Shown: positions 6,553-43,103 of the stretch, in pieces | Numbering within the stretch: position 1 is the first letter of the stretch | How the letters are laid out: each line of letters starts with the position of its first letter | From: Burkholderiales bacterium | GTDB taxonomy: Bacteria > Pseudomonadota > Gammaproteobacteria > Burkholderiales > Casimicrobiaceae | NCBI GenBank assembly: GCA_039807685.1 | Contig: JBDHRR010000001.1 | Location: forward strand, 60,505 to 124,504 | DNA length: 64,000 nt | Reading direction: 5' to 3' | Translations under genes and position numbers: made by a program | The notes under the pieces: model-generated | What the model saw: only the letters and a program-made list of their open reading frames with translations | What the model was told of the DNA's origin: nothing | Databases searched by the model: none

Positions 6553-6560
6553 ACTGGCCG

Positions 6561-10528: not shown

Positions 10529-10541
10529 CCGAGGAGCCGCC

Positions 10542-13165: not shown

Positions 13166-13183
13166 GGGTCGTAGCCCGCTCGT

Positions 13184-13792
13184 TCACGGGCGCCGCGTTT
13201 CGCTGACGCAGAAACCCGCGATCCGGGTGAGAACGCGCGCGAGCGCCGCGTTTGCCGCGGCAACGCCACCCGCGGCGTTGTCGGAAGACGAGAGTTCCGT
13301 TTCCTCGAACACGTGGGTCGCCACGACGCGGCGCGTGCGTAGATCCGTGAGCTGGGCGCGCACCACGACCTCGCTGCGGCTCGGCGTCGCACTGAAGTTC
13401 TGCACGACGCGTACGATCTCGGTGTCGAGCCGATAGTCCGCCGGCGCGGCGGCCGGCGCCTGGACCACGGCGCGGAAGCCACCCGTCTGTTCGAGAGCGC
13501 GCACGACGAGCGGCGCCAGCATGCGCGGTGGCGTGTCGACCCAGCGATTGACGGCGAAGCGGTCGAGCTCGTAACCGCCGCGCGTGTACACCATGTCCGT
13601 CGTATCGAAGCCGGGCCACGCGCGTGGCGCCGCGACCTCGATGGCGGCGTCGCTCGGCGGCGCGGCGGCGGCGATCGTCGGCGCGGCGGCGAGGACGTGC
13701 ACCGTCACGGGCTCGGGCGCCGGGGGTTGCAGCGCACTGCACGAAGCGAGCACGAAGGCGGCCAGCACGGCAAACGCGAGTTTCATCGTCAT
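13184..13792 (-). CDS. ABC-type transport auxiliary lipoprotein (PqiC-like)
   Basis: Lipobox LASC; RWVDTPPRMLAPL; last gene of the Mla/Pqi-type operon. Confidence 0.82.
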   Translation of the reverse strand: MTMKLAFAVLAAFVLASCSALQPPAPEPVTVHVLAAAPTIAAAAPPSDAAIEVAAPRAWPGFDTTDMVYTRGGYELDRFAVNRWVDTPPRMLAPLVVRALEQTGGFRAVVQAPAAAPADYRLDTEIVRVVQNFSATPSRSEVVVRAQLTDLRTRRVVATHVFEETELSSSDNAAGGVAAANAALARVLTRIAGFCVSETRRP

Positions 13793-14715
13793 TCTCCGGG
13801 TCCGCGCTTGGCGGGCTGCCGTCCCCAGACGAGCGTGCCCGGATTGCGCTCGAGCTCGCTCGTCGTGCGGCGCAGCGTGCTGGTGACCTCGCGCAGTTCG
13901 GCGATGAGCTGGCGGACCTCGGGCAGCGTCTCCCCGGTGAACTGCGCGACCTCGCCGCGGCTGCCTTCGACGAGCTGCCCCGCGCTCGTCCCGGCGCTGG
14001 CGAGGCTTTGCGTCATGCGATCGAACGCGTCGGCGCTGCGCTCGATTCGCTGCACCAGCGCCGGCAGCTCGGCGGTGAATCGCGCGGCATTGGCCGTCGT
14101 GCGACCGGCGTCGGCGAGCGCCGCGTCGACCGTCGCCGAGCGCGCGGCGAGCGTGTGCGAGACGACGCGCAGGTCGGCGAGCGTTTGCGAGATCGCGCGA
14201 CGATTCTCCTCGTCGAGCACCGCGTTGATGTTGTCGAGCGCGCGCGTCGCCTTCTCGACGAGGACCGTCACCGAAGTGTCGAGGCGCGCGAACAGCGACG
14301 GCCCCGAGCGGATCACCGGATACGAATCACCGGGCTTGGCGACGAGCGGCGGCGACTCCTTGCGTCCGCCCATGAGCTCGACGTAGGCGATGCCGGTGAG
14401 GCCTTGCGTCTGCAGCGTCGCCACCGTGTCCTGCTTGACGGGTGTGTCGCGCTGGATCGACAGCGTGAGCTGCACCTCTTCGACGTTCGCGGGGTTGAGG
14501 ACGATGCCGCGGACGAATCCGACGTCGACGCCGCGGTACTTGACGGGCGCGTTGACGTTGAGGCCCGACACCGATTCGGTCAGGTACGCGAGATAGGTGT
14601 CGTAGCTCTTGCCGTAGTAGCGGCCGCTGGTGAGCCACAGCACGCCGCCGATCAGCGCCGTGCCGAGGAGCAGGACGAAGGCGCCTACGACGGCAAAGTT
14701 GAACTTCGCTTCCAA
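13789..14715 (-). CDS. MlaD/MCE-domain substrate-binding protein with helical C-terminus
   Basis: TTG start (MEAKFNFAVVGAFV); SVSGLNVNAPVKYRGVDVG MCE motif; QGLTGIAYVEL. Confidence 0.85.
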   Translation of the reverse strand: MEAKFNFAVVGAFVLLLGTALIGGVLWLTSGRYYGKSYDTYLAYLTESVSGLNVNAPVKYRGVDVGFVRGIVLNPANVEEVQLTLSIQRDTPVKQDTVATLQTQGLTGIAYVELMGGRKESPPLVAKPGDSYPVIRSGPSLFARLDTSVTVLVEKATRALDNINAVLDEENRRAISQTLADLRVVSHTLAARSATVDAALADAGRTTANAARFTAELPALVQRIERSADAFDRMTQSLASAGTSAGQLVEGSRGEVAQFTGETLPEVRQLIAELREVTSTLRRTTSELERNPGTLVWGRQPAKRGPGE

Positions 14716-15473
14716 GCCTGTTCCCGCGCGGCGCGGCCGCGCGGTCCGTAGAAGTACTCGTGGACGAGAGGATCGTCGAGTTTGGCGAGGTCGTCCATCG
14801 AGCCGACCCCCAGGATATGCCCCCGCCCGAGGACGGCCACCCGATCCGCGGCGCGCCACAGCAGGTCGAGATCGTGCGTGACCATCATGATCGACAGGCC
14901 CAGCGTATCGCGCAGGTTGCGCACGAGCTCGTCGATGCCGCTTGCGCTGAGCGGATCGAGTCCCGCGGTCGGCTCGTCGAGGAAGAGAAGCTCGGGATCG
15001 AGCGCCAGCGCCCGCGCCAGCGCCGCCCGCTTGCGCATGCCGCCCGACAGTTCGTTGGGGTACTTGGCACCGGCGTCGGCGGGCAATCCGGTGAGGGCGA
15101 TCTTGATCGCGGCCATCTCCGCGACGAGGCGCGGCGACAGGGCGGTGTGCTCGTGCAGGACCATGCCGACATTCTCGGCGACGGTGAGCGAGCTGAACAG
15201 CGCGCCGCGCTCGAATACCACGCCGAATCGCCGGCGCAGCGGGAGCGCCTCCTCGTCGCCGAGGCCGACGACTTCGCGGCCGAAGACGCGGATCGACCCG
15301 GCGGCGGGGGCGTGCAGCAGGAGGATCTCGCGCAACAGCGTCGACTTGCCGCAGCCGCTGCCCCCGACCAGCGCAAAGATCTCGCCGCGGCGCATCGCGA
15401 GGCTCACGCCATCGTGCACGACGGAAGCGCCGAAGCGGGTGACCAGGTCGGTGATCTCGACGACGTTATCCAT
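14685..15473 (-). CDS. MlaF-like ABC ATP-binding protein
   Basis: GGSGCGKS, LSGGMRKRAALARAL, FLDEPTAGLDP; TGATG coupling to mlaE. Confidence 0.9.
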   Translation of the reverse strand: MDNVVEITDLVTRFGASVVHDGVSLAMRRGEIFALVGGSGCGKSTLLREILLLHAPAAGSIRVFGREVVGLGDEEALPLRRRFGVVFERGALFSSLTVAENVGMVLHEHTALSPRLVAEMAAIKIALTGLPADAGAKYPNELSGGMRKRAALARALALDPELLFLDEPTAGLDPLSASGIDELVRNLRDTLGLSIMMVTHDLDLLWRAADRVAVLGRGHILGVGSMDDLAKLDDPLVHEYFYGPRGRAAREQAWKRSSTLPS

Positions 15474-27407: not shown

Positions 27408-28028
27408 CTAGCCCGGCGCGATGCCGGCGTGGGATCCAGCCGATTCCACGAGCTGGATGAGTTGCGCCGGCGAGCGGGCGCCGAGCTTGCGCATCGCTCG
27501 CGAGCGGTGGACCTTCACCGTGCTCTCGGTGCACGCGAGGTCCGCCGCAATCTGCTTGTTGAGGAGTCCGCCGGCTACCCGAGTGAGAACCGCCCGCTCG
27601 CGCTGCGTGCAACGTGCCAGGAGGTCGTGCGCGCGGGCGGCGTGACGGGCATCGGCGTGACTCGTGATCGCGCGGGTCGCCGCCGCCTCGATCGCCGCGA
27701 TGAGCGTGCCGTCGTCGGTCGGCGATGGCAGCACGTCGATGACGCCGGCGCGCATCGCGCGCACCACGAAGCGCAGGTCGACTCCCCGATATACGACGAT
27801 CACGGCAGCGCCGATCGCGCACAGCCGCTGGCAGAGCTGCGTATCCACTTCGGGTGAGCTGTCGTCGACGTCGATCACCACGCACGTGGGCGTCGCCAGG
27901 GTTGCGGCGGCGCCCCAGACCGCGAGCGAGTCGACCGTGTCGATCCGATAGCGATCCGGAAGCCGGAGGGAGGCGAGGCGGGTGGTTGCGGTGGAGTCGC
28001 AGACGACGCGAATGATCGGAGGCTGCAT
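27408..28028 (-). CDS. FixJ-like LuxR regulator with atypical receiver domain
   Basis: C-terminal TQRERAVLTRVAGGLLNKQIAADLACTESTVKVHRSRAMRKL; VRAMRAGVIDVLPSP where FixJ has GAxDFxxKP. Confidence 0.75.
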   Translation of the reverse strand: MQPPIIRVVCDSTATTRLASLRLPDRYRIDTVDSLAVWGAAATLATPTCVVIDVDDSSPEVDTQLCQRLCAIGAAVIVVYRGVDLRFVVRAMRAGVIDVLPSPTDDGTLIAAIEAAATRAITSHADARHAARAHDLLARCTQRERAVLTRVAGGLLNKQIAADLACTESTVKVHRSRAMRKLGARSPAQLIQLVESAGSHAGIAPG

Positions 28029-28219
28029 GGCTGGGCCGGGACACCGCCGCGCTTGGGGCGGCGTCGGTAGTCGAGCAAACGATTGCCGGCGCCACGCGAC
28101 GTGGCCGCGGCGGCTTCGGCGATGCCCCGCACGATGCGGCAAAGCCGTCGAAAAATCCTGAAGAATTCCTGAAAATGCCGCGCAAGACGGCGAAGCGGCG
28201 GCCCGCGGCCGCCGTGCGG

Positions 28220-29260
28220 TCATCGCGGCGGCTCGGATCGCGCTGCGGTCGATCCGCGCGGCGGCCGTGTTGGCGTCGGTGCCCGCGATGCGCGGGCGCC
28301 CCCGGCGACGATTCCCAGCGTCATGACGAGGAGGGTAGCAACGACGTTGTGCAGGGTCGCCGCCACGAGCGGACGGATACCGATCGAGGTCGCGGCGCCG
28401 ATGACCACCTGCGCGGCAACGAGCACCACCAGCCACACCGCGAGTCGACGCCGCGTCGCGCGCAGGCGCCATGCCAGCAGGCCAACCGCGAGCGCAAACG
28501 CCAGCGCGACGATGCGGTGCGCAACCTGCAGTCCTTGCCGGGCGCCGGCATCCAACGCGGGCGACGCTTGCCACGGATCGAATGCCGCGACGCTCGGTCG
28601 CGCGCCGCTCATGCACAGCGGCGTGGCACAGGCGTCGATCGCGTGCCGGGCGCCGATCATCGTGCCGCTGTACGCGAGGAGGGCGACGAGCGCCAAGGCC
28701 ACGAGCGCGCTGCGGGTGATCGCGGCGCCGGCCGGCGCGCTGGCGTCGACGGCGGGCGAGCCCGCTTCCCCGCGGCGGTGCAACGCTGCCGCGACCCACC
28801 CGAGGACAGCGGTCAGGAGGAGCCCGCCGACGAGGTTGCCGAGCGTCACCAGTGGCAGGTCGTGCGGGGTATAGCGACCCAACCACGCGAGGAAGGCGGT
28901 CACGGTCACTGCCACGACGGCGGCGACGCGTCCCGAGACGGCGAGCGACGTCCAGCCGAGCACGGTCACGACGAGAACGAGAACGCCGACGGTCGTCGCG
29001 CTCACCCGGTGCAGCGCGCGGGCGCTGCGCACGCCGGGGAGATCGTCGGTCTTCGCGGTGACCGCAGCCGGCGGGTGGGACGTGGTGCCGGGAGCGGGGC
29101 TGGCGGCGATGCCCGGCGCTGCGGCGGTCGCATGCGCGGTCCGATAGCACGCCGGCCAATCGACGCAGCCCACCCCGTTCTGCGCATGACGGATGAAGGC
29201 GCTCGACGCGGTGATGCACACCGTGAGCAGCGCCGCGACGAGCGCGACGAGCCGGATCAT
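28220..29260 (-). CDS. ctaA: COX15/CtaA (heme A synthase)-family protein with altered catalytic residues
   Basis: GCVDWPAC loop, second Cys pair CATPLC, ALHR, VAHR, TLHN; the second substrate-site His appears as N (TLGNL). Confidence 0.75.
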   Translation of the reverse strand: MIRLVALVAALLTVCITASSAFIRHAQNGVGCVDWPACYRTAHATAAAPGIAASPAPGTTSHPPAAVTAKTDDLPGVRSARALHRVSATTVGVLVLVVTVLGWTSLAVSGRVAAVVAVTVTAFLAWLGRYTPHDLPLVTLGNLVGGLLLTAVLGWVAAALHRRGEAGSPAVDASAPAGAAITRSALVALALVALLAYSGTMIGARHAIDACATPLCMSGARPSVAAFDPWQASPALDAGARQGLQVAHRIVALAFALAVGLLAWRLRATRRRLAVWLVVLVAAQVVIGAATSIGIRPLVAATLHNVVATLLVMTLGIVAGGARASRAPTPTRPPRGSTAARSEPPR

Positions 29261-30693
29261 CGGGCCGGACGCGCCGCGATCACGCTCGCCAGCACCACCC
29301 ACACGAAGAGGACGCCGCCGGCGATGGCGAGCAAACCGCCCAGCCCCATCAAGCCCATGCCCGCCACCTCCTGCGTGGTGCGCAGCGTCTGCTCGGCACC
29401 CGCCACCTTGCGCTGCACGCCGTAGCCGCCGGACCACAGCAGGCCCAGGATGTGCAGCAATTGCCCACCGCCGTACAGCCACGGCTGCCAGTCGGCGAGC
29501 CGTCCGCGGACCTCACGAAAGCCCAGGCGCGGCAGGAGCGCGTACGCCAACCCCATGAGCGCCAGCGTCACGCCGACGATCGAGCCGTGGTAGTGCGCCG
29601 GAATCCGCACGTCGGAGCCCTGGATGAGGAAGCCGATCAGGCCCCCGGCCGCGAACAGCAGTAGCGAGGCAACGAGCGCCGCGCGCAGCGGTCGCGTCAC
29701 CGGGGTCGTCGCCCGCTGCCGCACCAGCGCCACCGCGAGTGCCAGCACCATCGGCAGGATGGCGAGCCCGCCGCCGAAGCGCATGAGCCAGGTCATCATC
29801 CTGCGATACTCGACCGAGACCACGGTCCAGTTGAGATAGATGAGCGGCGCGACGAATACCGAGACGAGACCGATCGCGTAGACGAGGACGACCACGCGCG
29901 GACTCAGCGGCAGCGGCGAGCCGGCAAGCGTGGCGAGCCACGCCCAGGCGACCAGCATGAGGAGCGTCCATGTGAACTGGATGACGTGCCCGGGGCCCCA
30001 GAACAGGAGTTCGTAATAGGTGAGCGCGTCGACGTCGCGCGGAACCTCGGCGAGCGACCACGCCAGCGCCAGCAGCGCAACCGCGCTCGATACCGCGGCG
30101 GCCTTGAGGCCGAAGCGCAGCGCATCGGCCCCGTCGAGGCGCAGGCTCATGCGCGCCGGCGCGACGAACGAGCGCAGGGTGAGGAGCAGGAAGCCCGCGC
30201 CCAGCACGACGAGTCCGGCGAGGAAAGTGTCATTGTCGAGGACCGGCACGTAGTTCGACATCACCGGTACGGCAGCGCCGGTGAAGGGGGCCGCCGCCAT
30301 CAGTGCGGTGCCGGCGGCGGTCACCGCGAGCGCGAGCCACCCCAGCCAGACGAAACGCGGCGACGTATCGAGTGTCCACAGCATGCCCGCCATCGACACG
30401 AACCAGACCAGCACCGACAGGTCGACGTGAACGACGAGCGCGACCCGGAAGAAATCCCCTGCCGGCACGATTCCGGCGAAGAACGGCGTGCGGGCGAGCA
30501 CCAGCAGGATCGAGAACACGCCGGCGCCGATCAGCGCCGCGACACCCAGCAGCAGCCAGCCGGTGGCGATCGAGCGCTGCGCGGTGGCGGGAATCGCGAT
30601 CTCGAAGCGGGCGTCGCGTATCCCGCGCGCGACGCCGCCGAGCACGCGCGCCGGCTCCGCCGATGAGGTGCTGCTCAGCGCGCGCTGCGGCAT
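29257..30693 (-). CDS. Divergent heme-copper-superfamily subunit I paralog lacking the His-His pair
   Basis: About 12 TM; VVHVDLSVLVW (helix II), FWGPGHVIQF (helix VI), PAHYHGSIVG (helix X); no HH in the helix VII region. Confidence 0.72.
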   Translation of the reverse strand: MPQRALSSTSSAEPARVLGGVARGIRDARFEIAIPATAQRSIATGWLLLGVAALIGAGVFSILLVLARTPFFAGIVPAGDFFRVALVVHVDLSVLVWFVSMAGMLWTLDTSPRFVWLGWLALAVTAAGTALMAAAPFTGAAVPVMSNYVPVLDNDTFLAGLVVLGAGFLLLTLRSFVAPARMSLRLDGADALRFGLKAAAVSSAVALLALAWSLAEVPRDVDALTYYELLFWGPGHVIQFTWTLLMLVAWAWLATLAGSPLPLSPRVVVLVYAIGLVSVFVAPLIYLNWTVVSVEYRRMMTWLMRFGGGLAILPMVLALAVALVRQRATTPVTRPLRAALVASLLLFAAGGLIGFLIQGSDVRIPAHYHGSIVGVTLALMGLAYALLPRLGFREVRGRLADWQPWLYGGGQLLHILGLLWSGGYGVQRKVAGAEQTLRTTQEVAGMGLMGLGGLLAIAGGVLFVWVVLASVIAARPAR

Positions 30694-30744: not shown

Positions 30745-31251
30745 TCATCGGATGACGACGCCGCCTTGATCGGGCACGAAGTCGATGAGGACGACCTGTC
30801 CGGGGGCGAGCTTGATCCGACGCTCCGCCTCGTGATTGAAGCCCTTGACGCGAACGCTGTCGTTCACCTGCACGCGCAGGAGATGCTCGCCGGCGGGAAT
30901 CGGCTGCCGGCGATAGCCGCTCGCCGCGCCGTCGCGACGCAGCCCTGCCGGCGCGAACGTCTCGTCCAGCACCAGCTTGCCGTCGAGATCGACGCGCACG
31001 TGCACCGGCGAACGCTCGCGCGGGCAGTCCATCTGCGCGCGCAGTTGTGGCGACATCTTGGCGAGCTCCTCGGGACTGCGCGGACGGCAGTCGGTGGTGA
31101 GCTGGCCGGGCGCGCGGAACGACAGCCGCAGGAGCGCCTGATCGGGCGGCAGGTGCTGGTACGCGGGCGCCGTCGAGAAATAGCCGATGAAAGCAGCGAA
31201 CAGGATGTAGAGGATCGCCTGTCCGCCGTAGCGCAACGCCGAGTTAGCCAT
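30745..31251 (-). CDS. Hypothetical membrane-anchored protein with two Cys
   Basis: Single N-terminal TM (QAILYILFAAFIGYF), TTDCRPR and MDCPRER, beta-rich C-terminus; overlaps the upstream gene's stop. Confidence 0.75.
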   Translation of the reverse strand: MANSALRYGGQAILYILFAAFIGYFSTAPAYQHLPPDQALLRLSFRAPGQLTTDCRPRSPEELAKMSPQLRAQMDCPRERSPVHVRVDLDGKLVLDETFAPAGLRRDGAASGYRRQPIPAGEHLLRVQVNDSVRVKGFNHEAERRIKLAPGQVVLIDFVPDQGGVVIR

Positions 31252-32836
31252 GGATACTGTCTCCGAGCGGGTGGCGGGTCGTCCCGCCGTCTGCCTTTCT
31301 TGTCTCGCCCGCGGGGAGCCGCGCGCGGAACGATTCGATGTCGCTGTCGAGTGCGGCGCCCTGTTCGCGGCCGGCATGGATCACCGCGAGCCGCCTCCGA
31401 TCGACGCTGCGGCGCAGCCACGGCGGACGCAGGCCGGCGATGCGCTCGAGCGTCCATCGTACCCCGAAGCGGTATTCGCAATCGCCCATCGCGCACGTTG
31501 CCACCACGACCCCGGCCGCGCCCGCGCGCAAGCCGTAGTCGACGAAGGTCGGCGGCAGCATGCCGGTACACGGCAGTCCGATGACGATCGTGCCGGGTTG
31601 CCTGGTCGGCTGCGCACCGTGGTGACAGGCGAAGACCAGGAGTGAGCCGCTCGCGTCGGGTCGGCCGAATGCAGTGTCGATCGCTGCGCGCACCGTATCC
31701 ACCGTGTAGTACGGCAGGTCGATGCCACTCACCAAGGCGGTGACCGAACGGAACGGCACCGCCGACGGGCAGGCGCCCGCGCAGATCCCGCAGGAGGCAC
31801 AGCGATCGGCGTCGACCACCGCGATCTCGCCCCTGCCGCTCGGATGCGGCGCCATGGCGATCGCGGCGTAGGGGCAATCCTCGAAGCAGCGCCGGCAGCC
31901 GTTGCAATACAGCGGGACGACCACCGCCGGCGCCGGTCGCGGCGTGCGACCGAGCCACGGCAGCACCGCGAGCAGCAGCGTCAGGCCTACGCTCGCGATC
32001 CAGACCGCCTCCGGCGAAGTGGTGTAGATGGCCGGCAACGGCGCGAGATAGAACCAGTCGATCGGCAGGTCGGTAGGGATTCGCGCGAGGTCGGCGGGCG
32101 GCCCCGACACCGCCGGTACGACGAGCGACAGCGCGACGAGCGCGGCGAGACTCGCCAGCGCCACGCGCCGCGTGGTGCCGGTCTGTGGGCGGGTGAGCCT
32201 TTGCACGTGTGCCCACATGGTAAGCAGCAGCACGAGCGGCAGCCCGATGTGCAGGAAGGCAACCAGCGAGAACAGGCGGTCGGACACCGCGCTCTCGGCG
32301 ATGAAATTGCGCACCAGCGCCGGCCCGAAGCCGGGAAGGACGCCGAACCATTCGGTGGTGGCGGTGGCGACGAACTGCGCGAGCGTGTCCCACACCATCC
32401 AGTAGCCGACCACACCGGCGGCGACCGCGAGCCAGAGCGTGGGGATGCCGCTCACCCAGCTGTACCAGCGAAAGCCGCGGAAGCGCCCGAGCAGCAATTC
32501 GCGCAGGAGATGCACGATGATCACCACCACGAAGGCGTCCGACGCGTAGCGGTGGAGGCTGCGCATCAGCCCGCCGGCCCACCGCTGGCCGTGCGTGAGT
32601 GTCTCGACCGAGGCGTACGCACCGACGACGCTGGTGTCGTAGAAGATGTACAGGTAACCGCCGGTCAACGCGATCAGCCAGAAGAGGTAGAACCCGAGTC
32701 CCCCGAGCTGGCGCAATGGATTGTCGTCGACGCCGCAGAGGCGGTCGAGGGCATGCTCGCCGGCGCGCCACGCGCGCGCCGCCGCGGCGTCGGCCGCGAC
32801 CGCGGCATCGGGAGTCGAAGACAGGTTGAACGCCAT
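31244..32836 (-). CDS. Cytochrome b - 2x[4Fe-4S] - FlpD/MvhD-type Fe-S fusion protein
   Basis: Four heme His (SLHRY, IVHLLR, FLHIG, WAHVQ); IDWFY; CNGCRRCFEDCP and CASCGICAGACP; FACHHG, LPCTGMLPP, TCAMGDCEY. Confidence 0.85.
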   Translation of the reverse strand: MAFNLSSTPDAAVAADAAAARAWRAGEHALDRLCGVDDNPLRQLGGLGFYLFWLIALTGGYLYIFYDTSVVGAYASVETLTHGQRWAGGLMRSLHRYASDAFVVVIIVHLLRELLLGRFRGFRWYSWVSGIPTLWLAVAAGVVGYWMVWDTLAQFVATATTEWFGVLPGFGPALVRNFIAESAVSDRLFSLVAFLHIGLPLVLLLTMWAHVQRLTRPQTGTTRRVALASLAALVALSLVVPAVSGPPADLARIPTDLPIDWFYLAPLPAIYTTSPEAVWIASVGLTLLLAVLPWLGRTPRPAPAVVVPLYCNGCRRCFEDCPYAAIAMAPHPSGRGEIAVVDADRCASCGICAGACPSAVPFRSVTALVSGIDLPYYTVDTVRAAIDTAFGRPDASGSLLVFACHHGAQPTRQPGTIVIGLPCTGMLPPTFVDYGLRAGAAGVVVATCAMGDCEYRFGVRWTLERIAGLRPPWLRRSVDRRRLAVIHAGREQGAALDSDIESFRARLPAGETRKADGGTTRHPLGDSIHG

Positions 32837-32879: not shown

Positions 32880-33731
32880 TCAGGCGCGGCGCGTCCGCCG
32901 CAACTCGCGCAGCGTGAACCAGGCGATTGCCCCGAGCGTGGTCAAGCCGGCGAAGATCTCGAAGAACAGCGAATAGTTGAGACGGTAGCCGCCGCCTTGC
33001 GGATCGTACACGGTACAGTACAGGATCACCTTGTCCCAGACGTTGCCCAGTGTGAGTTCGCGCGAGGCCTGCCCCGAGCGCAATTCCTTGAGCGGTTGCA
33101 CGAGCATCGGCAGGTCGAAATTCTCGCCGTAGACCTGGCGGTAGATGACGCCTTCGGCATCGACGATGGTGACCTGCGTGACGTGATCGAAGCCCTTGGC
33201 GGTGGCCTCGTAGACGAAGCCCAGGTTGGCGGTGAGTGCCTCGACCTGCGTCGGATCGGGGCTCAGGAAATGCCAGCCGGGCTCATCGATGCGGTTCTGG
33301 CGCTTGAAGGCGGCCATTGCCGCCGGCGTGTCAAAGGGTTGATTGAAGCCGATCGACACCACGGTGAAGGCGTCGTCGCCCAAGGCCCGGCGCGCCTCGC
33401 GCACGGCCTGCGCGAGGAACTGCGTGGCGACCGGACAGGCCTGGAAGCAGCCGGTGTACACGAGGCTGACCAGCAGGGGTCGTCCCTGGTAGTCGCGCAG
33501 GCGAACGTCCTTGCCGTTGCTGTCGCGCAGGCGGATGTCGGCAACCGGCCGGCCGATCGCCGCCTGGCTCGTCGTGACGGCGCGCTGGTAATCGGGCGCC
33601 CGGGGTGCCTTGGCGCTGTCTTCTGCCGTCGCCCGCGCCGGCAGCGCGACCATGCAGGCGGCGGCGCCGGCCGCGAGCGAGGTGATCAGGATGCGGGCGA
33701 GCGGTGCGCGGCGGGAGCTGCGACTCGGCAC
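32880..33731 (-). CDS. SCO-family copper chaperone with C-terminal membrane extension
   Basis: YTGCFQACP (CxxxC) and GFDHVTQ His; C-terminal TM FFEIFAGLTTLGAIAWF. Confidence 0.88.
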   Translation of the reverse strand: MPSRSSRRAPLARILITSLAAGAAACMVALPARATAEDSAKAPRAPDYQRAVTTSQAAIGRPVADIRLRDSNGKDVRLRDYQGRPLLVSLVYTGCFQACPVATQFLAQAVREARRALGDDAFTVVSIGFNQPFDTPAAMAAFKRQNRIDEPGWHFLSPDPTQVEALTANLGFVYEATAKGFDHVTQVTIVDAEGVIYRQVYGENFDLPMLVQPLKELRSGQASRELTLGNVWDKVILYCTVYDPQGGGYRLNYSLFFEIFAGLTTLGAIAWFTLRELRRTRRA

Positions 33732-33735
33732 GGCG

Positions 33736-34602
33736 TCAGGCCCCGAGCGAGGACCTCATCCAGCCGTCGGCGATGGTTCCCATGAGGAGCAGCGAGAGCT
33801 GGACGAGCGAGGCGTGGAAGCTTGCCAGCGCATTGGCCCGATTCGGCGTGCGGGCCAGCAGCCAGGCACGCCACACGAAGAGCGCACTGCCGGTCGCTGC
33901 ACATGCGAGGTAGAGCCAACCCGGGCCGAAGAATGCAAGCGCGAGCGAACAGCCGACCATGACGAGCGCGTGCCAGAAGATCGCCCAGGCCGCGAAGCGG
34001 TCGCCCTTGACCACCGGCAGCATCGGCACCCCGACGCTCGCGTAGTCGTCGCGGCAGACGATCGCGAGACTCCAGAAGTGCGGCGGCGTCCACAGGAACA
34101 GCACGAGGGCGAGGACGAGCGCCTCCGGCGAAAGCTGCGGGGAGACCGCCGCCGCGCCGGCCAGCACCGCGAAGCTGCCGGCCAGCCCTCCGATCACGAT
34201 GTTCCACGCGCTGCGACGCTTGAGCCAGACGGTGTACACGATCGCGTAGACGAAGGCGCCCAGGAACGTGTACAGCGCCGCGGCCGCGTTGGTGGCGAGC
34301 CACGCCGCCGCCACCGCGATTCCGGTCAGCGCGACGATGAGTACCAGCCAGCCGCGATGGTGCCGCATGTGCCCGCTCACGAACGGGCGGCGACGCGTCC
34401 GCGTCATCCGCGCGTCGAGATCGACCTCGTAGAACTGGTTGAAGGCACCTGCGGCCGCCGACGACAGCAGCACGGCAAGCGTCAGGACCACGCCTTGCCA
34501 GGGGGCGAGGGTGCTGCCGGGCGACACCATCAGCCCGGCGACCGCGGTGAGCGCGATCGCCACGCCGATGCGCAGCTTGAAGAGATTGAGCAGCGCCTTC
34601 AT
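33736..34602 (-). CDS. ctaB: Protoheme IX farnesyltransferase (heme o synthase)
   Basis: LFKLRIG, NQFYEVDLDARMTRTRRRP, YTVWLKRR, LWTPPHFWSLA, DYASVGVPMLP. Confidence 0.93.
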   Translation of the reverse strand: MKALLNLFKLRIGVAIALTAVAGLMVSPGSTLAPWQGVVLTLAVLLSSAAAGAFNQFYEVDLDARMTRTRRRPFVSGHMRHHRGWLVLIVALTGIAVAAAWLATNAAAALYTFLGAFVYAIVYTVWLKRRSAWNIVIGGLAGSFAVLAGAAAVSPQLSPEALVLALVLFLWTPPHFWSLAIVCRDDYASVGVPMLPVVKGDRFAAWAIFWHALVMVGCSLALAFFGPGWLYLACAATGSALFVWRAWLLARTPNRANALASFHASLVQLSLLLMGTIADGWMRSSLGA

Positions 34603-36396: not shown

Positions 36397-36936
36397 TTAC
36401 TTGACGTAGAGCCGCGAGACCATCTTGTGATGGCCGATGCCGCAGAATTCGTTGCAGACGATCGCGTACTGGCCCGAGCGATTGGGCGTGACCGTCACCA
36501 CGTGCTGGTAGCCGGGAAGGACCTGGATGTTGATGTTCTCAGGCTGCAGCGAGAATCCGTGCTGGTAATCCATCGAGCTCAGGTTGAGGCGATAGCTCTT
36601 GCCCTTCTCGAGTTCGAGGATCGGCCACCAGTCCCACAGGCGCGCGATGAGGTAGATGTCGCTGCCCGCGGGCGGCGCCACCACCGGCACCTTGCCCTCG
36701 CCCTCGGTGCGCACGGTGTACTTGTCGACCATGTCCTGCGCGGCCTTGGCGAAGAGTTCGGGCTTGACGCGGTACGTTTCCGATGACAGGTTCTGCTTAC
36801 CGAACACGTGCCAGTACGGCATCATGAAGAACATGATCATGCACCACACGAAGGCGATGACGATCCAGATGATCTCGATCTTGTCGACCGGTTGCTTCCA
36901 CCAGATGCGTTGCGGCGGGGGCAGTATGGCGCTCAC
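36397..36936 (-). CDS. CuA-containing subunit II (single TM, ba3-type architecture)
   Basis: DYQHGF...CNEFCGIGHHKM CuA motif; one N-terminal TM. Confidence 0.92.
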   Translation of the reverse strand: MSAILPPPQRIWWKQPVDKIEIIWIVIAFVWCMIMFFMMPYWHVFGKQNLSSETYRVKPELFAKAAQDMVDKYTVRTEGEGKVPVVAPPAGSDIYLIARLWDWWPILELEKGKSYRLNLSSMDYQHGFSLQPENINIQVLPGYQHVVTVTPNRSGQYAIVCNEFCGIGHHKMVSRLYVK

Positions 36937-36964: not shown

Positions 36965-37144
36965 TCACTTGGCGAGCGGCGTCACCGGCACCGTTGCGAT
37001 TTCCATGACGCCCCAGAGGATATAGAGCACGGTGGGAATCACGACGCCCAGGAACAGCAGCAGGAACGGGTTGTCGAGGATCTGCTGCATCACGGGGATG
37101 CGCTCTTCTTGGTTTTCGGGCTGCGATCGAGTATGGTCAGCCAT
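36965..37144 (-). CDS. Small single-TM subunit (subunit IIa-like), 59 aa
   Basis: MADHTRSQPENQEERIPVMQQILDNPFLLLFLGVVIPTVLYILWGVMEIATVP; RBS GAAGGGGGAG; first gene of the operon. Confidence 0.75.
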   Translation of the reverse strand: MADHTRSQPENQEERIPVMQQILDNPFLLLFLGVVIPTVLYILWGVMEIATVPVTPLAK

Positions 37145-37227
37145 GGCGGCTCCCCCTTCCTGTCGATGAAATTGGCAACGAAATCGGCAACACCGGGCAT
37201 CATGGTTGGCGGGGGCCTGCATCCGCC

Positions 37228-37452: not shown

Positions 37453-39372
37453 TTGCTCAAGATAGTCCAAGGCTTCCTGCAGTGGTTTTTCCTGCGGATG
37501 GAGGCGATCGGCAACCGGGTATTCGGCGATCGGCTGAACCCGATGTACTACCTGGGCGCGACGAGCTACTGGATGTTCTGGATCGTCGTCGCCAGCGGCC
37601 TGTACGTCTACGTTTTCTACGAGACCGGGGTCGACAAGACATACGCCTCGATGGAGGCGATCACGCACGGGCAGTGGTTCGCCGGCGGCATCATGCGCAG
37701 CGTGCACCGCTACGCGTCCGACGCGATGGTGCTGACCATGCTGCTGCACATGCTGCGGCATTTCGCCTTCGACCGCTATCGCAGCTTCCGCGCCTTCTCG
37801 TGGGTCACCGGCGTGATCGTGCTGTGGCTCGTCTACGCCTCGGGCGTGAACGGCTTCATGCTGCCCTGGGACAAGCTCGCGCAGTTCGTGGTGATCGGCA
37901 CCACCGAATGGCTCGATTCGCTGCCGGTGTTCAACGGCATCCTGACGCGCAATTTCATCACCCCCGACGCGATCACCGACCGGCTTTTCTCGCTCCTGTC
38001 GTTCCTGCACATCGGCATTCCGCTGGTGGTGATGCTCGCGCTGTGGATCCACACGCAGCGCGTGCCGCGCGCGTCGCAGATTCCGCCTCGCCGTCTCGCC
38101 TTCGGACTGCTCGCGATGCTGCTCGTGCTGTCGCTCGTGAAGCCGGTGGTGAGCCAGGCGCCCGCCGATTTCAACACGGTGCCGATGCGGCTCGACTTCG
38201 ACTGGTTCTATCTCACCGTCTATCCGCTCATCTACGCCTGGGATCCGCTCAAGCTGTGGATCCTCTGTGCCGGCGTCACCGTACTGCTGCTGGCGTTGCC
38301 GTGGCTGCCACCGGCGCGCAGCGGCAAGGGCCGCGCGTATCACCTGACGGCGCACCCGGGTCGCCAGGGCGCACCGGTGCGCGTCGGCGAGACGCTGCTC
38401 GACGCGGGGCTGCGCGCGGGCATCGCGCTGCCTTACGAATGCCGCTCTGGCGGCTGCGGCGTGTGCAAGGCGACGATGATCGGCGGCGAGGTCGAGATGT
38501 CGGGCTACCAGCCCTCCGCGCTCTCCGCCGAGGAGCGCAGCGCGGGTCGCATCCTGCTGTGCTGCGCCCGCGCGCTGTCCGATGTCGAGTTCGAATACGA
38601 GGCGGATGCGGCCGCCCGCGGCACGAAGATCGAGACCTACGAGACGCGCGTCGAGCGACTGGCGCCGCTCGCCCACGACGTGATGCTCGTCGCGCTGCGC
38701 CTGCCCGAGGGACGCAAGATCGAGTTCGAGGCCGGCCAGTACGTGAACGTCGTGCTCGACGGCGGCGCACGACGCAGCTACTCGTTCACGACGCCGTCGG
38801 GCGCCACCGACCTCATCGAACTGCACGTGCGGCTGATGCCTGGCGGGTTGTTCACCTCGCGCGTCTTCGAATCGATGAAGGTGGGCGATCCCATCACCAT
38901 CGAGGGCCCGGTGGGGTCGTTCGTGCTGCACGAGCCGAGCGAGAAGCCGCTCATCTTCGTCGCCGGCGCGACCGGCTTCGCGCCGGTCAAGAGTCTCCTC
39001 GAACAGGCTTTCCACATGGGGATCCAGCGGCCGCTCTACCTGTACTGGGGCGTGCGCCGTCGCCGCGATCTCTACCTCACCGAGTTGCCGGAACGCTGGG
39101 CGCGCGAGCACCCCAATTTCCACTTCGTGCCCGTGCTCTCGGAGGCGGCCCCCGAGGACGACTGGCACGGCCGCACGGGCCTCGTCCACGAGGCGATCCT
39201 CGCCGATTTCCCGAACCTGTCGGGCTTTGCGGTCTACGCCTGCGGTTCGGTGCGCATGGTCGCCGCGGCGCGGCCGGCGTTCGTCACGCAGGGCCTGCAC
39301 GAGGATGCGTGCTACTCCGACGCGTTCATCCCCGCCGGTGGCGCCGAGCCGGGAGTCGCGCCGCCCGCGTAA
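37453..39372 (+). CDS. Cytochrome b - [2Fe-2S] ferredoxin - FAD/NAD(P)H reductase fusion
   Basis: Heme His SVHRY, LLHML, FLHIG, WIHTQ; FDWFY; CRSGGCGVC...LLCC; RSYS (FAD); AGATGFAP and YACG (NAD). RBS GGAGGA before TTG. Confidence 0.88.
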   Translation: MLKIVQGFLQWFFLRMEAIGNRVFGDRLNPMYYLGATSYWMFWIVVASGLYVYVFYETGVDKTYASMEAITHGQWFAGGIMRSVHRYASDAMVLTMLLHMLRHFAFDRYRSFRAFSWVTGVIVLWLVYASGVNGFMLPWDKLAQFVVIGTTEWLDSLPVFNGILTRNFITPDAITDRLFSLLSFLHIGIPLVVMLALWIHTQRVPRASQIPPRRLAFGLLAMLLVLSLVKPVVSQAPADFNTVPMRLDFDWFYLTVYPLIYAWDPLKLWILCAGVTVLLLALPWLPPARSGKGRAYHLTAHPGRQGAPVRVGETLLDAGLRAGIALPYECRSGGCGVCKATMIGGEVEMSGYQPSALSAEERSAGRILLCCARALSDVEFEYEADAAARGTKIETYETRVERLAPLAHDVMLVALRLPEGRKIEFEAGQYVNVVLDGGARRSYSFTTPSGATDLIELHVRLMPGGLFTSRVFESMKVGDPITIEGPVGSFVLHEPSEKPLIFVAGATGFAPVKSLLEQAFHMGIQRPLYLYWGVRRRRDLYLTELPERWAREHPNFHFVPVLSEAAPEDDWHGRTGLVHEAILADFPNLSGFAVYACGSVRMVAAARPAFVTQGLHEDACYSDAFIPAGGAEPGVAPPA

Positions 39373-39382: not shown

Positions 39383-40117
39383 CTATCGGGGTTCGACGCT
39401 GCACAGGTACGGCATCCAGGGGTGCAGCGCCGGTATCGCGGTGACGAGCCACGGTCCGGTGAGCGTGAGCGTCGCCCCGGCGAGCAGCACGACGCCCGCA
39501 CCGCGGCGCAGCGCGGGGCGCGAACCGAGTGCCGCGAGCCGGCGCGCACCGAACGCCACGGCGAGCATCGCCGGCGCGGTGCCGAGGCCGAACATCAGCA
39601 TCGTGGCCGCGGCGCGCAGCGCGTCGAGTTGCAGCGCGGCCAGGGTCAGCACCGTGTAGACGAAGCCGCAGGGCATGAATCCCCAGACCATGCCGAAGCC
39701 GATCGCGCGCGGCAGGCTCGTCACCGGCAGGAGCTTGCGGCCGAGCGGCGCGAGCTTGGGCCAGAGGTGGCGGCCGACGAAGCCGGCGCCGACGTCGCGC
39801 AGGCGACCGAAGGCGACGAGAGCCGCGACGAGCAGTGCGAGCGCGGCAATGACCCGCAGCGTGCGGCGCACCGCCTCGGCAGCGAGCGCGTCGGCAAGCG
39901 CGCCGAGCGCACCACCCACGACGAGCGCAACGAGCGCGTAGGCGAGCACGCGGCCGACCTGGTAGCCGATGAGGAAGTCGGCGCGGGGCCGTCCATTCGC
40001 CCCGCGCGCGGTCGCGAGTCCGAGTGCTGCGGAAATCCCGCCGCACATCACGAGGCAGTGTCCGCCCGCGGCGAGCCCCAGCAGGAGTGCCGCGAGGAGC
40101 GTGATGTTGCCGGTCAT
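39383..40117 (-). CDS. cbb3-associated DsbD_2/TauE-like membrane protein
   Basis: GGHCLVMCGG, GYQVGRVLAY, WGFMPCGFVY, FGLGTAPAM; end of the cco operon. Confidence 0.82.
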   Translation of the reverse strand: MTGNITLLAALLLGLAAGGHCLVMCGGISAALGLATARGANGRPRADFLIGYQVGRVLAYALVALVVGGALGALADALAAEAVRRTLRVIAALALLVAALVAFGRLRDVGAGFVGRHLWPKLAPLGRKLLPVTSLPRAIGFGMVWGFMPCGFVYTVLTLAALQLDALRAAATMLMFGLGTAPAMLAVAFGARRLAALGSRPALRRGAGVVLLAGATLTLTGPWLVTAIPALHPWMPYLCSVEPR

Positions 40118-40317
40118 GGCGTCTCGCCCGGTGTCACCTGCCAGCGTGCCGCGGGTGGCACGGGTGGCGCCGCCAGCGGGTCGACGTCGGTGAGCGGCAG
40201 CAGGCCCGGCGTTTCCATGTCGTCGAACTGCCCGTGGTCGACCGCCCAGAAGAGGACGAAGCCGGCGCCGATGAGGACCACGATCGAGACGCCGATGAGC
40301 ACGACGAGAATGCTCAC
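40114..40317 (-). CDS. ccoS: cbb3 oxidase maturation protein CcoS/FixS
   Basis: GTG start; MSILVVLIGVSIVV...FWAVDHGQFDDMETP. Confidence 0.88.
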   Translation of the reverse strand: MSILVVLIGVSIVVLIGAGFVLFWAVDHGQFDDMETPGLLPLTDVDPLAAPPVPPAARWQVTPGETP

Positions 40318-40378
40318 CGGACGACCCTCCGCGCGATCGCGCTGCGGGGCAATCCGCCCTCGGGACGGCCCGTCGGGC

Positions 40379-42832
40379 TCATGCTGCCACCTGCGCCGGC
40401 GTTGGTGCCGGTTGCACGGTGTGGCGCCGCTCGCGTCCGATGCGCAGCGCATTGAGCACCACGATGAGCGAGCTCGCCGACATGCCGAGTGCCGCAAGCC
40501 ACGGCGGCACGAAGCCGAGCGCGGCGAGCGGGACCGCGGAAAGGTTGTAGAACAGCGCCCAGCGCTGGTTGACGAGGAGCGTCGCCAGCGTGCGCTTCGC
40601 CAGTGCGCAGGTGTCGGCGAGCGCGCGCGGATCGTCGCGGGCGAGCACGACGTCGCTTGCCGTCTGCGCGATCGCCGCTCCGGAGGCCATCGCCACCCCG
40701 ACGTCGGCGCCGGCGAGCACCGGGGCGTCGTTGATCCCATCACCCACGGCGACGACGCGCGCGCCACCTGTCCGCCGTTCGCGCAGCCAGACGAGCTTGC
40801 CGGCGGGATCGGTGCCCGCACGCCACGTCGCGATGCCGAGCGCGGCGGCGGTTGCGGCGACCTTGGACGGCGCGTCGCCACTCACCAGCGCGACCTCGAT
40901 CCCCGCTGCACGCAACCGGTCGACGGCGTCGCGCGCGCCTTCACGGAGGCGCTCGCGCACGTGCAGCACGGCGATCACTCCCGCCTCGTCGGCGAGCACG
41001 ACGGCGTCGTCGCCGTGTACTGCGGCGTCGCGCGCGGCGGGGTCGCGCAGCGCGAAGCCGGCGTGGCCGAGCCGCAGGCGGCGCGCGCCGATGCACCCCG
41101 CGACCCCGGCACCGGCCTCGGTGATGGCATCGTCGACGTGCAGCGGCGACGCGGGCACCGCGGCGGCAATCGCCCGCGATACCGGGTGCGTGCTGGTACG
41201 CGCGAGTGCTGCGGCCAGCGCCAGTGCCTCGTCACGCGCGATGCCGCCGAAGACCTCGACGCGGTCGAGTTCGAGCCACGGCTCGGTGAGCGTCCCCGTC
41301 TTGTCGAACATCACGTGGGTCGCGCCGGCGAGCGCTTCCAGCGCATCGGGCCGAACCACCAGCACGCCGCGCGCGGCGAGGACCGCGAGCGCACGCGTCA
41401 CCGCTGCCGGGGCGGCGAGCGCGAAGGCGCACGGACACGAGACGACGAGCACGGCGACGGTCGCTGCAAACGCGCGCGTCGGATCGACGATGCTCCAGCC
41501 GAGTGCGGTCAAGGCGGCGAGCGTGAGGACGCGGGCGACGAATCGCGCGGCGGCGCGTTCGCCGGCCAGCGCGATGCGCGGCCGCTCGCTTGCCGCGCGG
41601 GAGGCGAGGGCGACGATCGAGGACAGGACGGTGTCGGCACCGGTGCGCTCGACGCGCACGGTCGCCGCCACGTCGACGACCACGCTGCCCGCGCACAGCG
41701 CGTCGCCGGTGCGCTTGACGACTGGCGTCGACTCGCCGGTGAGCAGCGACTCGTCGACGCGACAGGGCGCGCTCTCCAGCATGCCGTCGGCCGGGACGAG
41801 CGTGCCGACTGCGACCAGCACGCGATCGTCGGGGACGAGTTCGAATGCTCCCACGCGGGTCGTCGTGCCGTCGGCGGCAAGACGCAGCGCGACCTGCGGC
41901 GCCGAGCGCGCCAGCGCGTCGGTGAGATCGCCGGCACGATGGCGCGCCCGCATCTCGAGATAGCGCCCGACCAGCAGGAAGAAGACGAACATGCTCACCG
42001 ATTCGAAGTACACCTCGCCGCTGCCGCGCAGCACTTCGATCACGCTGCCGGCGTAGATGAGCGCAATGGCGAGTGCGACCGGCACGTCCATGCCGAGGCG
42101 ACGCGCGCGCAGGAGGCGCAGCGCGCCGGCAAAGAACGGCGCGCCGGCGTAGATCACCACCGGCGTGGCGACCGCGAAGCCCAGCCATCGGAAAAGTTCG
42201 CGGGCCGCCGGATCGAGATCGTCGAAGGCGCCGAAGTAGAGTGCGCTTGCATACATCATCGCCTGCATGGCGCCGAAGCCGGCCACCGCCAGGCGCTTCA
42301 TGGCCGAGCGCGATTCGCGCCCGCGGGCGTCGTCGAGCGCCGCGGCGTCGAGCGGCAGCGCCCGGTAACCCAGGCGCGCGAAGGCGTCGACGATCGCCGG
42401 CAGCGCCACGCGGGCGGGATCGAAGCTGATGCGCGCGCGCCGCGCGCTGCCGTTGACGGCCACCTGCGCCACGCCCGGCAGCGTCCCCACGCCGTGCTCG
42501 ATCAACCACGAGCACGCCGCGCAGCGCAGGCCGTCGACGACGACCACGGTTTGCGCGCTGCCATCGGGCAGTGCCTGCACGAGATGGCGCGCGAGTTCGG
42601 GGCGGGCGAAGGCCTGCGCCGCACGCGCGGTCTCGTCGAGATCGGGCGCTCGCGGCGCAACGCGCTCGCGCAGGCGGTAGTAGTCGGCGAGTCCGAGTGT
42701 GCCGATCCATTCGGCGGCGGCACGACAGCCGGGACAGCACACCGCGTGCGCTTCGCCGGCGACGTGCGCGAGCGGCGGGTCGTGCGGCAGCGGTTCACCG
42801 CAGTGCCAGCAACCGTGGCGGTCGCTGCTCAT
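40379..42832 (-). CDS. ccoI: cbb3-associated copper P1B-ATPase CcoI/FixI
   Basis: N-terminal CWHC...CCPGC, CAAC HMA domain, [21 protein letters not shown]. Confidence 0.92.
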   Translation of the reverse strand: MSSDRHGCWHCGEPLPHDPPLAHVAGEAHAVCCPGCRAAAEWIGTLGLADYYRLRERVAPRAPDLDETARAAQAFARPELARHLVQALPDGSAQTVVVVDGLRCAACSWLIEHGVGTLPGVAQVAVNGSARRARISFDPARVALPAIVDAFARLGYRALPLDAAALDDARGRESRSAMKRLAVAGFGAMQAMMYASALYFGAFDDLDPAARELFRWLGFAVATPVVIYAGAPFFAGALRLLRARRLGMDVPVALAIALIYAGSVIEVLRGSGEVYFESVSMFVFFLLVGRYLEMRARHRAGDLTDALARSAPQVALRLAADGTTTRVGAFELVPDDRVLVAVGTLVPADGMLESAPCRVDESLLTGESTPVVKRTGDALCAGSVVVDVAATVRVERTGADTVLSSIVALASRAASERPRIALAGERAAARFVARVLTLAALTALGWSIVDPTRAFAATVAVLVVSCPCAFALAAPAAVTRALAVLAARGVLVVRPDALEALAGATHVMFDKTGTLTEPWLELDRVEVFGGIARDEALALAAALARTSTHPVSRAIAAAVPASPLHVDDAITEAGAGVAGCIGARRLRLGHAGFALRDPAARDAAVHGDDAVVLADEAGVIAVLHVRERLREGARDAVDRLRAAGIEVALVSGDAPSKVAATAAALGIATWRAGTDPAGKLVWLRERRTGGARVVAVGDGINDAPVLAGADVGVAMASGAAIAQTASDVVLARDDPRALADTCALAKRTLATLLVNQRWALFYNLSAVPLAALGFVPPWLAALGMSASSLIVVLNALRIGRERRHTVQPAPTPAQVAA

Positions 42833-42860
42833 CGTCGTGGCGGGCCGGCGAGCACGGCCG

Positions 42861-43103
42861 TCAGCGCGGCGTGGCGGCCCCACCTTCGGTGACGGGCGGT
42901 GCCGGCGCTCGCTCGCGGGGGACCTTGAAGACGGTGGCGCTACCTACGGCAACGTCGGTGTCGGCGTGACGGACCGCGACCACGATCAACCAGATGCAAC
43001 CGGCGAGCGAGGCGGCGAGGATCGCCGCCCCGATCCAGATCAGCGGCGGGATGTTGCGCAGGGTGCGTGCCGGCGCGACGGCGCGCTCATCGTCGCGCGG
43101 CAT
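42861..43103 (-). CDS. Short FixH/CcoH-like single-TM protein
   Basis: Position between ccoP and ccoI; PPLIWIGAAILAASLAGCIWLIVVAVRHAD resembles the FixH N-terminal TM. Confidence 0.55.
   Translation of the reverse strand: MPRDDERAVAPARTLRNIPPLIWIGAAILAASLAGCIWLIVVAVRHADTDVAVGSATVFKVPRERAPAPPVTEGGAATPR

Follow-up and report, generated by a model that had tools for sequence, protein, structure and literature searches.

A cytochrome b, ferredoxin and reductase fusion encoded beside eNOR-type nitric oxide reductase genes in a Burkholderiales bacterium

A stretch of 64,000 nt from a Burkholderiales bacterium of the family Casimicrobiaceae (GenBank assembly GCA_039807685.1, contig JBDHRR010000001.1, positions 60,505 to 124,504 of the forward strand; the whole stretch is called the window below) carries a gene, here named cytbFNR, in which a cytochrome b membrane domain is followed in the same polypeptide by a [2Fe-2S] ferredoxin domain and an FNR-type reductase with flavin adenine dinucleotide (FAD)- and NAD(P)H-binding domains (Table 1). 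Its neighbours encode a predicted eNOR-type nitric oxide (NO) reductase, with which relatives of the fusion consistently co-occur. The domain order had been read from the sequence in an earlier note, and was borne out by Pfam searches and by an alignment of 61 homologues, in which all cofactor-binding residues were invariant. The gene starts with a TTG codon immediately preceded by a GGAGG Shine-Dalgarno sequence, and the N-terminus (MLK...) is common to its homologues. An AlphaFold2 (AF2) model (predicted local distance difference test score, pLDDT, of 77) placed helices A to F in the membrane, with cd and ef surface helices, and the soluble domains after them. This confirmed cytbFNR as a genuine, well-conserved gene with an architecture far beyond chance, hidden in databases behind generic names such as 'FAD-binding oxidoreductase' and, for its neighbours, 'cytochrome c oxidase'.

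A minus-strand operon lies between the two cytochrome b genes of the locus, and cytbFNR is transcribed divergently from it. In the putative catalytic subunit (subunit I), the motif H-S-S-Q-Q aligns with H-P-x-x-Y of the Thermus ba3 oxidase, placing a Gln at the position of the cross-linked active-site Tyr, which is diagnostic of eNOR (PMC8756737), and the H-S-x-Q-Q motif was present in 68 of the 68 subunit I orthologues collected. The neighbouring enzyme is, as judged from this signature, an eNOR-type nitric oxide reductase; NO reductase activity without O2 reductase activity has been shown only for the eNOR of R. marinus. These enzymes reportedly equal the classical nitric oxide reductases in breadth of distribution, and strong expression has been reported in phosphorus-removing bacteria of wastewater and in nitrate-dependent iron oxidisers; the paper describing eNOR makes no mention of cytochrome b partners. 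Other genes of the operon point to cofactor assembly. The degenerate subunit I paralogue is called 'eNOR scaffold protein' in a preprint on Ferrigenium (bioRxiv 10.64898/2026.01.22.701106), and CtaA belongs to the variant class with E57K and H123N substitutions that is listed for betaproteobacteria such as Accumulibacter (PMC8239418), although it is missing from many related clusters that keep the fusion. No Pfam family matched the small membrane protein encoded first in the operon. No Rieske or cytochrome c domain was found by Pfam among the open reading frames (ORFs) of the cluster.

Table 1. Features of the cytbFNR and eNOR locus (positions in the window, unless given as residues of cytbFNR)
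Feature	Position	Strand	Evidence
cytbFNR, cytochrome b/[2Fe-2S] ferredoxin/FAD-NAD(P)H reductase fusion, 639 aa	37453..39372	+	ORF, Pfam, 61-sequence alignment, AF2
Six-helix b6-like membrane domain of cytbFNR	37453..38337	+	Pfam, alignment, structure search, AF2
Plant-type [2Fe-2S] domain of cytbFNR, C330-x4-C335-x2-C338...C370	38371..38574	+	Fer2; 4 Cys invariant
FNR-type FAD-binding and NAD(P)H-binding domains of cytbFNR	38650..39273	+	Pfam, sequence/fold matches
Cytochrome_B (Pfam) in cytbFNR	residues 26-200		E 1.5e-18
Fer2 (Pfam) in cytbFNR	residues 307-374		E 4.6e-15
FAD_binding_6 (Pfam) in cytbFNR	residues 400-490		E 3.1e-14
NAD_binding_1 (Pfam) in cytbFNR	residues 502-607		E 4.6e-22
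FNR/Dnr-type box TTGACCTGCATCAA	37228..37241	.	divergent promoter region between cytbFNR and eNOR operon
Small membrane protein, operon head	36965..37222	-	kept in nearly all related loci
eNOR subunit II, cupredoxin, complete CuA motif H-x34-C-x-E-x-C-x3-H-x2-M	36397..36936	-	sequence, Pfam COX2
eNOR subunit I, B-family-derived haem-copper enzyme, 568 aa	34679..36385	-	alignment to T. thermophilus ba3
Haem o synthase (CtaB)	33736..34602	-	NCBIfam TIGR01473, 263.5 bits, over cut-off
SCO1/SenC copper chaperone	32880..33731	-	Pfam
cytbFeS, paralogous cytochrome b + 2x[4Fe-4S] + MvhD/FlpD-like domain	31244..32836	-	Pfam, BLASTP
168-aa anchored protein, N-terminal membrane helix and periplasmic beta-sandwich	30745..31251	-	AF2 pLDDT 92.8
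Degenerate subunit I paralogue	29257..30693	-	Pfam COX1, E 5e-15
Haem A synthase (CtaA) variant, operon end	28220..29482	-	Pfam COX15-CtaA

The membrane domain of cytbFNR scored 67.8 bits against PF00033 (cut-off 27.2) and contains two bis-His sites, with the haem ligands H85/H186 on the P side and H99/H200 on the N side, thus giving the spacing H-x13-H twice; these residues were invariant in the 61 sequences. Among solved structures the domain is nearest to cytochrome b6 (E 1.6e-19), followed by the cytochrome b of bc1 (E 5.6e-8), with Cys35 of b6, the haem cn ligand, replaced by Tyr in cytbFNR. Two elements of the quinol-oxidising (Qo) site of these proteins are retained in both cytochrome b paralogues of the locus: the LPWD motif of the cd helix, which is invariant, and the sequence F-D-W-F-Y in the ef loop of cytbFNR, the counterpart of PEWY, with D250 and F252 invariant. 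The reductase begins approximately 10 residues past helix F. Since the topology is b6-like and the number of helices is even, the reductase was shown, by topology, homology and cofactors, to lie on the cytoplasmic (N) side. Membership of the NOX/ferric-reductase group was considered and rejected, as a Pfam scan of cytbFNR gave no match to the ferric reductase transmembrane domain (PF01794).

The tail has the features of a BenC/NqrF-type reductase: a Cx4Cx2C...C cluster site (C330, C335, C338 and C370), an RxYS flavin motif (R441..S444), a GxxGxxP nucleotide motif (G505-x-T-G-F-A-P511) and a C-terminal CG (C597-G598), all of them invariant in the 61 homologues. Its fold matched 5ogx (E 4e-29) and 1krh (E 9e-27), and sequence and fold together matched GcoB, BenC, T4moF, the carbazole dioxygenase reductase and NqrF. 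The members of this class (BenC, GcoB, T4moF and NqrF) that have been characterised oxidise NAD(P)H and hand single electrons outward via the [2Fe-2S] cluster. A soluble Fer2-FNR protein of 340–360 aa, 45–50% identical to residues 290–630 of cytbFNR, has its own gene in the majority of 301 genomes sampled evenly from the order Burkholderiales, and judging from this similarity it is the likely donor of the tail. The possibility that such a soluble protein had been mis-joined to a cytochrome b was rejected, because the soluble homologue is a gene of its own in most of the 301 genomes, and a single full-length ORF was present in 80/80 fetched related loci.

The second cytochrome b gene of the locus, cytbFeS, encodes a related membrane domain with a different tail. 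The two membrane domains share 50% identity over 265 residues (BLASTP, E 2e-82), and every motif that the earlier note had quoted in proposing their paralogy is present in this alignment. Trees of the membrane domains place the cytbFNR copies in a single clade, with Shimodaira-Hasegawa-like approximate likelihood ratio test (SH-aLRT) values of 94 and 99 and with the group recovered in 100% of the bootstrap trees.

Relatives of cytbFNR were collected by a pattern scan with one genome per species, which gave at least 594 stretches encoding such proteins, of which the best 80 were fetched; 41 loci had at least 8 kb of sequence on both sides and were taken as well-flanked. Genes for eNOR subunits I and II were present within 10 kb in 40 of these 41 loci, together with the second cytochrome b in 38–39, its Fe-S tail in 37, the anchored protein in 40 and the subunit I paralogue in 38. 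In distant relatives (57–61% identity), cytbFNR lies inside the operon, between the genes for SCO and the anchored protein, in the order small protein, subunit II, subunit I, CtaB, SCO, cytbFNR, anchored protein, cytbFeS and subunit I paralogue. Open frames of 1194–1223 aa around cytbFNR in three genomes had suggested natural fusions to its neighbours, but this idea was dropped because tblastn mapping placed the genes separately and in different frames. By gene content and order, cytbFNR is part of a conserved module of approximately ten genes built around the predicted eNOR.

The even sample of the order gave the same picture. Subunit I of eNOR was detected in 40 of the 301 genomes, which were exactly the 40 with a cytochrome b fusion, and neither was detected in the other 261. 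The full-length reductase fusion occurred in 39 genomes, all eNOR-bearing. Gene content across these genomes shows the inheritance of cytbFNR to be tied exclusively to that of predicted eNOR. Outside the order but within the same phylum, the reductase-tailed fusion was missing from 48 eNOR genomes, while the Fe-S type was present in 47 of these. Because cytbFNR forms a single clade and is missing from the eNOR genomes outside the order, the reductase fusion is, on this phylogenetic distribution, a lineage-specific derivative, with the cytbFeS type being the older, general eNOR partner. A search of 1.84 billion representatives at E 1e-30 recovered 289 clusters of this specialised cytochrome b family, with lengths peaking near 500–530, 645 and 690–720 residues. 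Most hosts are heterotrophic denitrifiers, and close homologues of cytbFNR are abundant in Rhodocyclaceae; carriers in culture include Zeimonas arvi CC-CFT501, Denitratisoma sp. DHT3 and Pelomicrobium sp. G1.

The earlier note had suggested that the two cytochrome b proteins may heterodimerise, and that independent occurrence of the fusions in most genomes would speak against this. Such independence was not seen: the fusions travel together in 36 of the 40 genomes and in 38–39 of the 41 well-flanked loci. The four remaining genomes carry one type only, with the reductase fusion alone in three (G048, a single-contig genome, G230 and G118) and the Fe-S fusion alone in one (G014). As the clusters of G048, G230 and G014 are otherwise intact, natural clusters with one paralogue indicate that the pairing is not obligatory, and that each protein is predicted to be able to work without the other. 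Three loci (L024, L038 and L049) keep the membrane domain of the second cytochrome b without a recognisable Fe-S/MvhD tail, and in another (L058) the tail of this protein is long but without a match. An eNOR operon from another family of the phylum with small genomes (approximately 2 Mb; locus L088, G366:C1:89000-101000, positions 5651-8886) contains two tandem cytochrome b/2x[4Fe-4S]/FlpD genes of 508 and 524 aa. Orthology of this tandem pair to cytbFNR and cytbFeS was rejected: the two copies are sisters in the tree, and hence represent an independent duplication. Co-occurrence, adjacency, a single old duplication, the tail-less second copies and the independent duplication elsewhere all fit a putative heteromeric cytochrome b core. 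Electron transfer between the bL haems of the two monomers is established for bc1, and the two paralogues may similarly share one dimeric haem 'bus'.

The gene for the anchored protein was always located 3′ of a cytochrome b gene, and its product is the sole unassigned periplasmic protein of the cluster. A role as substitute for a Rieske protein or cupredoxin was rejected, since its confident AF2 model showed no match to a Rieske, cupredoxin or cytochrome fold and no significant match in the PDB. Together with the Pfam results, this upholds the view of the earlier note that the cluster lacks a Rieske protein and cytochrome c1. Residues C55, C76 and H123 of the anchored protein are conserved; His47 is found in most homologues, with Arg in the protein from the window.

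Only three FNR/Dnr-type boxes with at most one mismatch were found in the 64-kb window, one in the divergent promoter region of cytbFNR and the eNOR operon and the others at 45058 and 46510, and of 64 promoter regions from related loci, 39 had an equivalent box. These boxes place the eNOR module under predicted low-oxygen or NO-type regulatory signals. A gene for a LuxR/GerE-type (FixJ-like) regulator (27408-28040, minus strand) is located just past the CtaA end of the operon, and a Crp/FNR-family regulator gene lies on the corresponding side in the locus of Ca. Nitricoxidivorans perseverans. On the 3′ side of cytbFNR, from 39383-42883 (minus strand) to approximately 46.5 kb, are genes for a DsbD_2-family membrane protein, a CcoI-type copper ATPase and a cbb3 oxidase. 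As these genes and the two further FNR-type boxes adjoin the fusion, low-oxygen respiratory genes are clustered around the locus. The genome further encodes a canonical cytochrome b on another contig, and has nirS and the genes for aa3 and cbb3 oxidases and for another haem-copper enzyme.

The module was also found in Ca. Nitricoxidivorans perseverans (CP107246.1; L084, positions 3501-14878), an NO-respiring enrichment reported to lack bc1 and listed with complex I. The locus includes eNOR II and I (with H-S-S-Q-Q), followed by CtaB, SCO, both cytochrome b fusions, with a 637-aa cytbFNR orthologue, and the anchored protein, and it adjoins norCBQ, so that the whole module stands beside norCB. 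The genes published as 'coxB/coxA' of this organism (OHM77_13135/13130) are eNOR II and I, an identification made firm by matching gene lengths and locus-tag order; judged by position, the cytochrome b genes of this locus should be the tags around OHM77_13105-13115. Transcript and protein values of 'coxB/coxA' were above those of norB in NO-grown cells, and eNOR may hence be a main NO reductase in this culture.

We tentatively favour a reading, to which we give somewhat less than an even chance, in which cytbFNR is a dedicated redox subunit of the betaproteobacterial eNOR module that acts as a transmembrane electron wire from NAD(P)H to eNOR. In this scheme NAD(P)H would be oxidised in the cytoplasm by the FNR-type domain, and the electrons would pass from FAD to the [2Fe-2S] cluster, on to the N-side haem b (H99/H200) and then to the P-side haem b (H85/H186). 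Their exit would be periplasmic, in the direction of CuA in eNOR, by direct transfer within a supercomplex, via a quinone in the Qo-like pocket, or via periplasmic carriers, with cytbFeS as a putative second cytoplasmic arm. The direction of flow, the acceptor and any dimer we infer: flow from inside to outside is favoured because every characterised reductase of this class works in this manner, because it is downhill both chemically and with the membrane potential, and because it would give eNOR an electron donor that needs neither bc1 nor cytochrome c. Indeed, NADH at −320 mV, as compared with CuA and NO, makes inside-to-outside flow favourable by chemistry and by membrane potential alike. 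The case of Ca. Nitricoxidivorans, which has the module without bc1 and has abundant eNOR subunits when grown on NO, speaks for this reading, and cytbFNR and cytbFeS are the sole electron-donor candidates encoded with eNOR.

Several points weigh against the electron-wire reading. The cluster encodes no periplasmic redox carrier to bridge the P-side haem and CuA, and the domain arrangement of cytbFNR was of low confidence in the monomer AF2 model (predicted template modelling score of 0.56). The conserved Qo-like pocket (LPWD and D250-W-F-Y) suggests quinone chemistry, as judged from these motifs, which would be superfluous for a simple wire. A route from NAD(P)H to eNOR would conserve little energy, and the published proposals run in the opposite direction, from quinol to NAD(P)+. 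Finally, the eNOR of R. marinus, an enzyme of two subunits, works with artificial donors, and the fusion is therefore not needed for eNOR catalysis.

The motifs of the quinone pocket also bear on the alternatives. A reverse or bifurcating mode, which we consider unlikely but not negligible, would amount to a Q-cycle-like quinol:NAD+ oxidoreductase that lacks a Rieske protein and is coupled to NO reduction: quinol would be oxidised at the Qo-like pocket, with one electron passing to eNOR via CuA and the other via the b haems, [2Fe-2S] and FAD to NAD(P)+. Such a function has been proposed for a gene of the same architecture in Ferrigenium straubiae, the proteins of which were found in the proteome (bioRxiv 10.64898/2026.01.22.701106), and the 'novel quinol reductase' of Accumulibacter has been the subject of a similar proposal. 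The cd-helix and ef-loop motifs conserved in both paralogues speak for it, it would account for the tie of the module to a very high-potential acceptor, and the tail of cytbFeS, with ferredoxin-type clusters and MvhD, is typical of low-potential electron transfer. The energetics are unfavourable: electrons would have to cross from P to N, opposed by the membrane potential, and climb to approximately −320 mV (as derived from standard potentials), while CuA (approximately +250 mV) pulls no harder than a Rieske centre, so that with ubiquinone the semiquinone would hardly reach NAD+. Moreover, no Rieske-like proton-accepting partner is encoded in the cluster, BenC/NqrF-type modules are known as NADH oxidisers, and most hosts, being heterotrophic denitrifiers, have no need of reverse electron flow. 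A more speculative version, and the least probable of the readings considered here, would place a cytbFNR:cytbFeS heterodimer at the centre of an electron-splitting complex of the Qo type, without a Rieske protein and docked on eNOR, in which quinol oxidation is pulled by the NO-reducing branch through CuA and the second electron takes either the [2Fe-2S]/FAD arm to NAD(P)+ or the 2x[4Fe-4S]/MvhD arm to a low-potential carrier. If true, part of the large free energy of NO reduction would be conserved as reducing power.

The same pocket motifs, the b6-like membrane domain and the inter-monomer bL to bL transfer known from bc1 would also suit a Rieske-less NAD(P)H:quinone oxidoreductase ('half-bc') with a quinone site on the N or P side, possibly as a heterodimer with cytbFeS, as the earlier note had proposed. 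Chloroplast b6f binds FNR and ferredoxin on the N side for cyclic flow to plastoquinone, and cytbFNR would by analogy be a covalent version of this arrangement. The distribution of the gene makes the half-bc reading quite doubtful. Fusions were present in 40/40 eNOR genomes and 0/261 others, and a general quinone reductase would not require eNOR; since the fusion occurs only with eNOR, the system served is eNOR and not the general quinone pool, and a free-standing NAD(P)H:quinone end point leaves this strongest signal out of account. In addition, eNOR is a CuA enzyme rather than a quinol oxidase, and a link from quinol to CuA would still be missing, and these genomes have other NADH:quinone routes, such as the complex I listed in the Nitricoxidivorans paper. 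We give a similarly low probability to a function in maturation, in which the fusion would supply electrons across the membrane to CtaA or to the degenerate subunit I scaffold for the biogenesis of eNOR cofactors. The operon does contain CtaB, SCO, the CtaA variant and the scaffold protein, both haem sites of eNOR hold modified haem A, and O2 and a reductant are required by CtaA. Yeast Cox15 depends on the ferredoxin and ferredoxin reductase pair Yah1/Arh1, which by analogy offers the same chemistry as the tail of cytbFNR, and as the haems of CtaA are near the outer face, a transmembrane wire would reach them. Against this stand the clusters that retain the fusion without CtaA, and the organisms with aa3 oxidase that make haem A without such a protein; two haems with a flavin/Fe-S arm, detected in proteomes, also seem heavy for an assembly factor.

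If the electron-wire reading is true and NAD(P)H feeds NO reduction, the module would provide a short, bc1-independent route to N2O, and might account for the way in which an NO-respiring bacterium gets by without complex III. If flow is in the reverse direction, it would be a new way to conserve energy from NO, and either direction would change the genome-based reading of N2O-producing potential and energy yield.

The closest match in the literature is a protein of Ferrigenium straubiae KS (IMG 2878407319), encoded in the eNOR operon and described as 'cytochrome b, [Fe-S], FAD-binding, NADH-binding' (bioRxiv 10.64898/2026.01.22.701106). The preprint calls both cytochrome b genes of that operon unusual, reports detection of the proteins in the proteome, and suggests that this architecture may serve as a quinol:NAD+ oxidoreductase within an eNOR supercomplex (bioRxiv 10.64898/2026.01.22.701106). 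The domain order is alike, the four-part architecture next to an eNOR operon is present in the window, and the Ferrigenium operon likewise holds eNOR II, eNOR I, haem o synthase, sco1, the scaffold protein and a second cytochrome b/[Fe-S] gene. In contrast, the Ferrigenium gene lies inside the operon whereas cytbFNR of the window is divergent, and the likeness is one of description, the Ferrigenium protein being known from annotation. All fetched reductase-tailed cytochrome b domains formed one clade, the Ferrigenium sequence being outside the fetched loci. A second relative may be found in Accumulibacter, which carries eNOR, in a Rhodocyclaceae protein similarly proposed to link quinol and NAD(P)H. 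Given the presence of eNOR in Accumulibacter, this protein is probably of the cytbFNR family. The proposal reportedly goes back to Garcia-Martin et al. in 2006, with a role in the redox balance of an anaerobic tricarboxylic acid cycle. Later papers cite it as a 'novel cytochrome b/b6' or 'novel quinol reductase', for which re-oxidation of quinol was suggested in 2006 (PMC4930944, PMC6593511). Overall, cytbFNR adds a member to a family noted before in Ferrigenium and probably in Accumulibacter, and the observation itself is not new.

Among well-characterised systems, the cytochrome b of b6f and bc1 shares with cytbFNR the four His ligands, the H-x13-H spacing, the LPWD(Q) cd helix, the PEWY-like ef loop and helices A to F, but cytbFNR has only six helices and a covalently attached cytoplasmic reductase, lacks the haem cn Cys, and is encoded without a Rieske or c1/f partner in the cluster. 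In the reductases BenC, GcoB, T4moF, MMOR and NqrF, a plant-type [2Fe-2S] domain likewise forms the N-terminal part, ahead of the FAD and NAD(P)H domains, with NqrF of Na+-NQR also being membrane-tethered and supplying membrane cofactors, whereas these proteins donate to soluble oxygenases or to the flavin/Fe chain of NQR and none is fused to a dihaem cytochrome b. In function the arrangement is most reminiscent of the NOX/FRE enzymes, in which electrons pass from cytoplasmic NAD(P)H via flavin and two stacked b haems to an acceptor across the membrane; however, their membrane fold is unrelated to that of cytbFNR and NOX has no Fe-S cluster, and the likeness is one of convergent design rather than membership.

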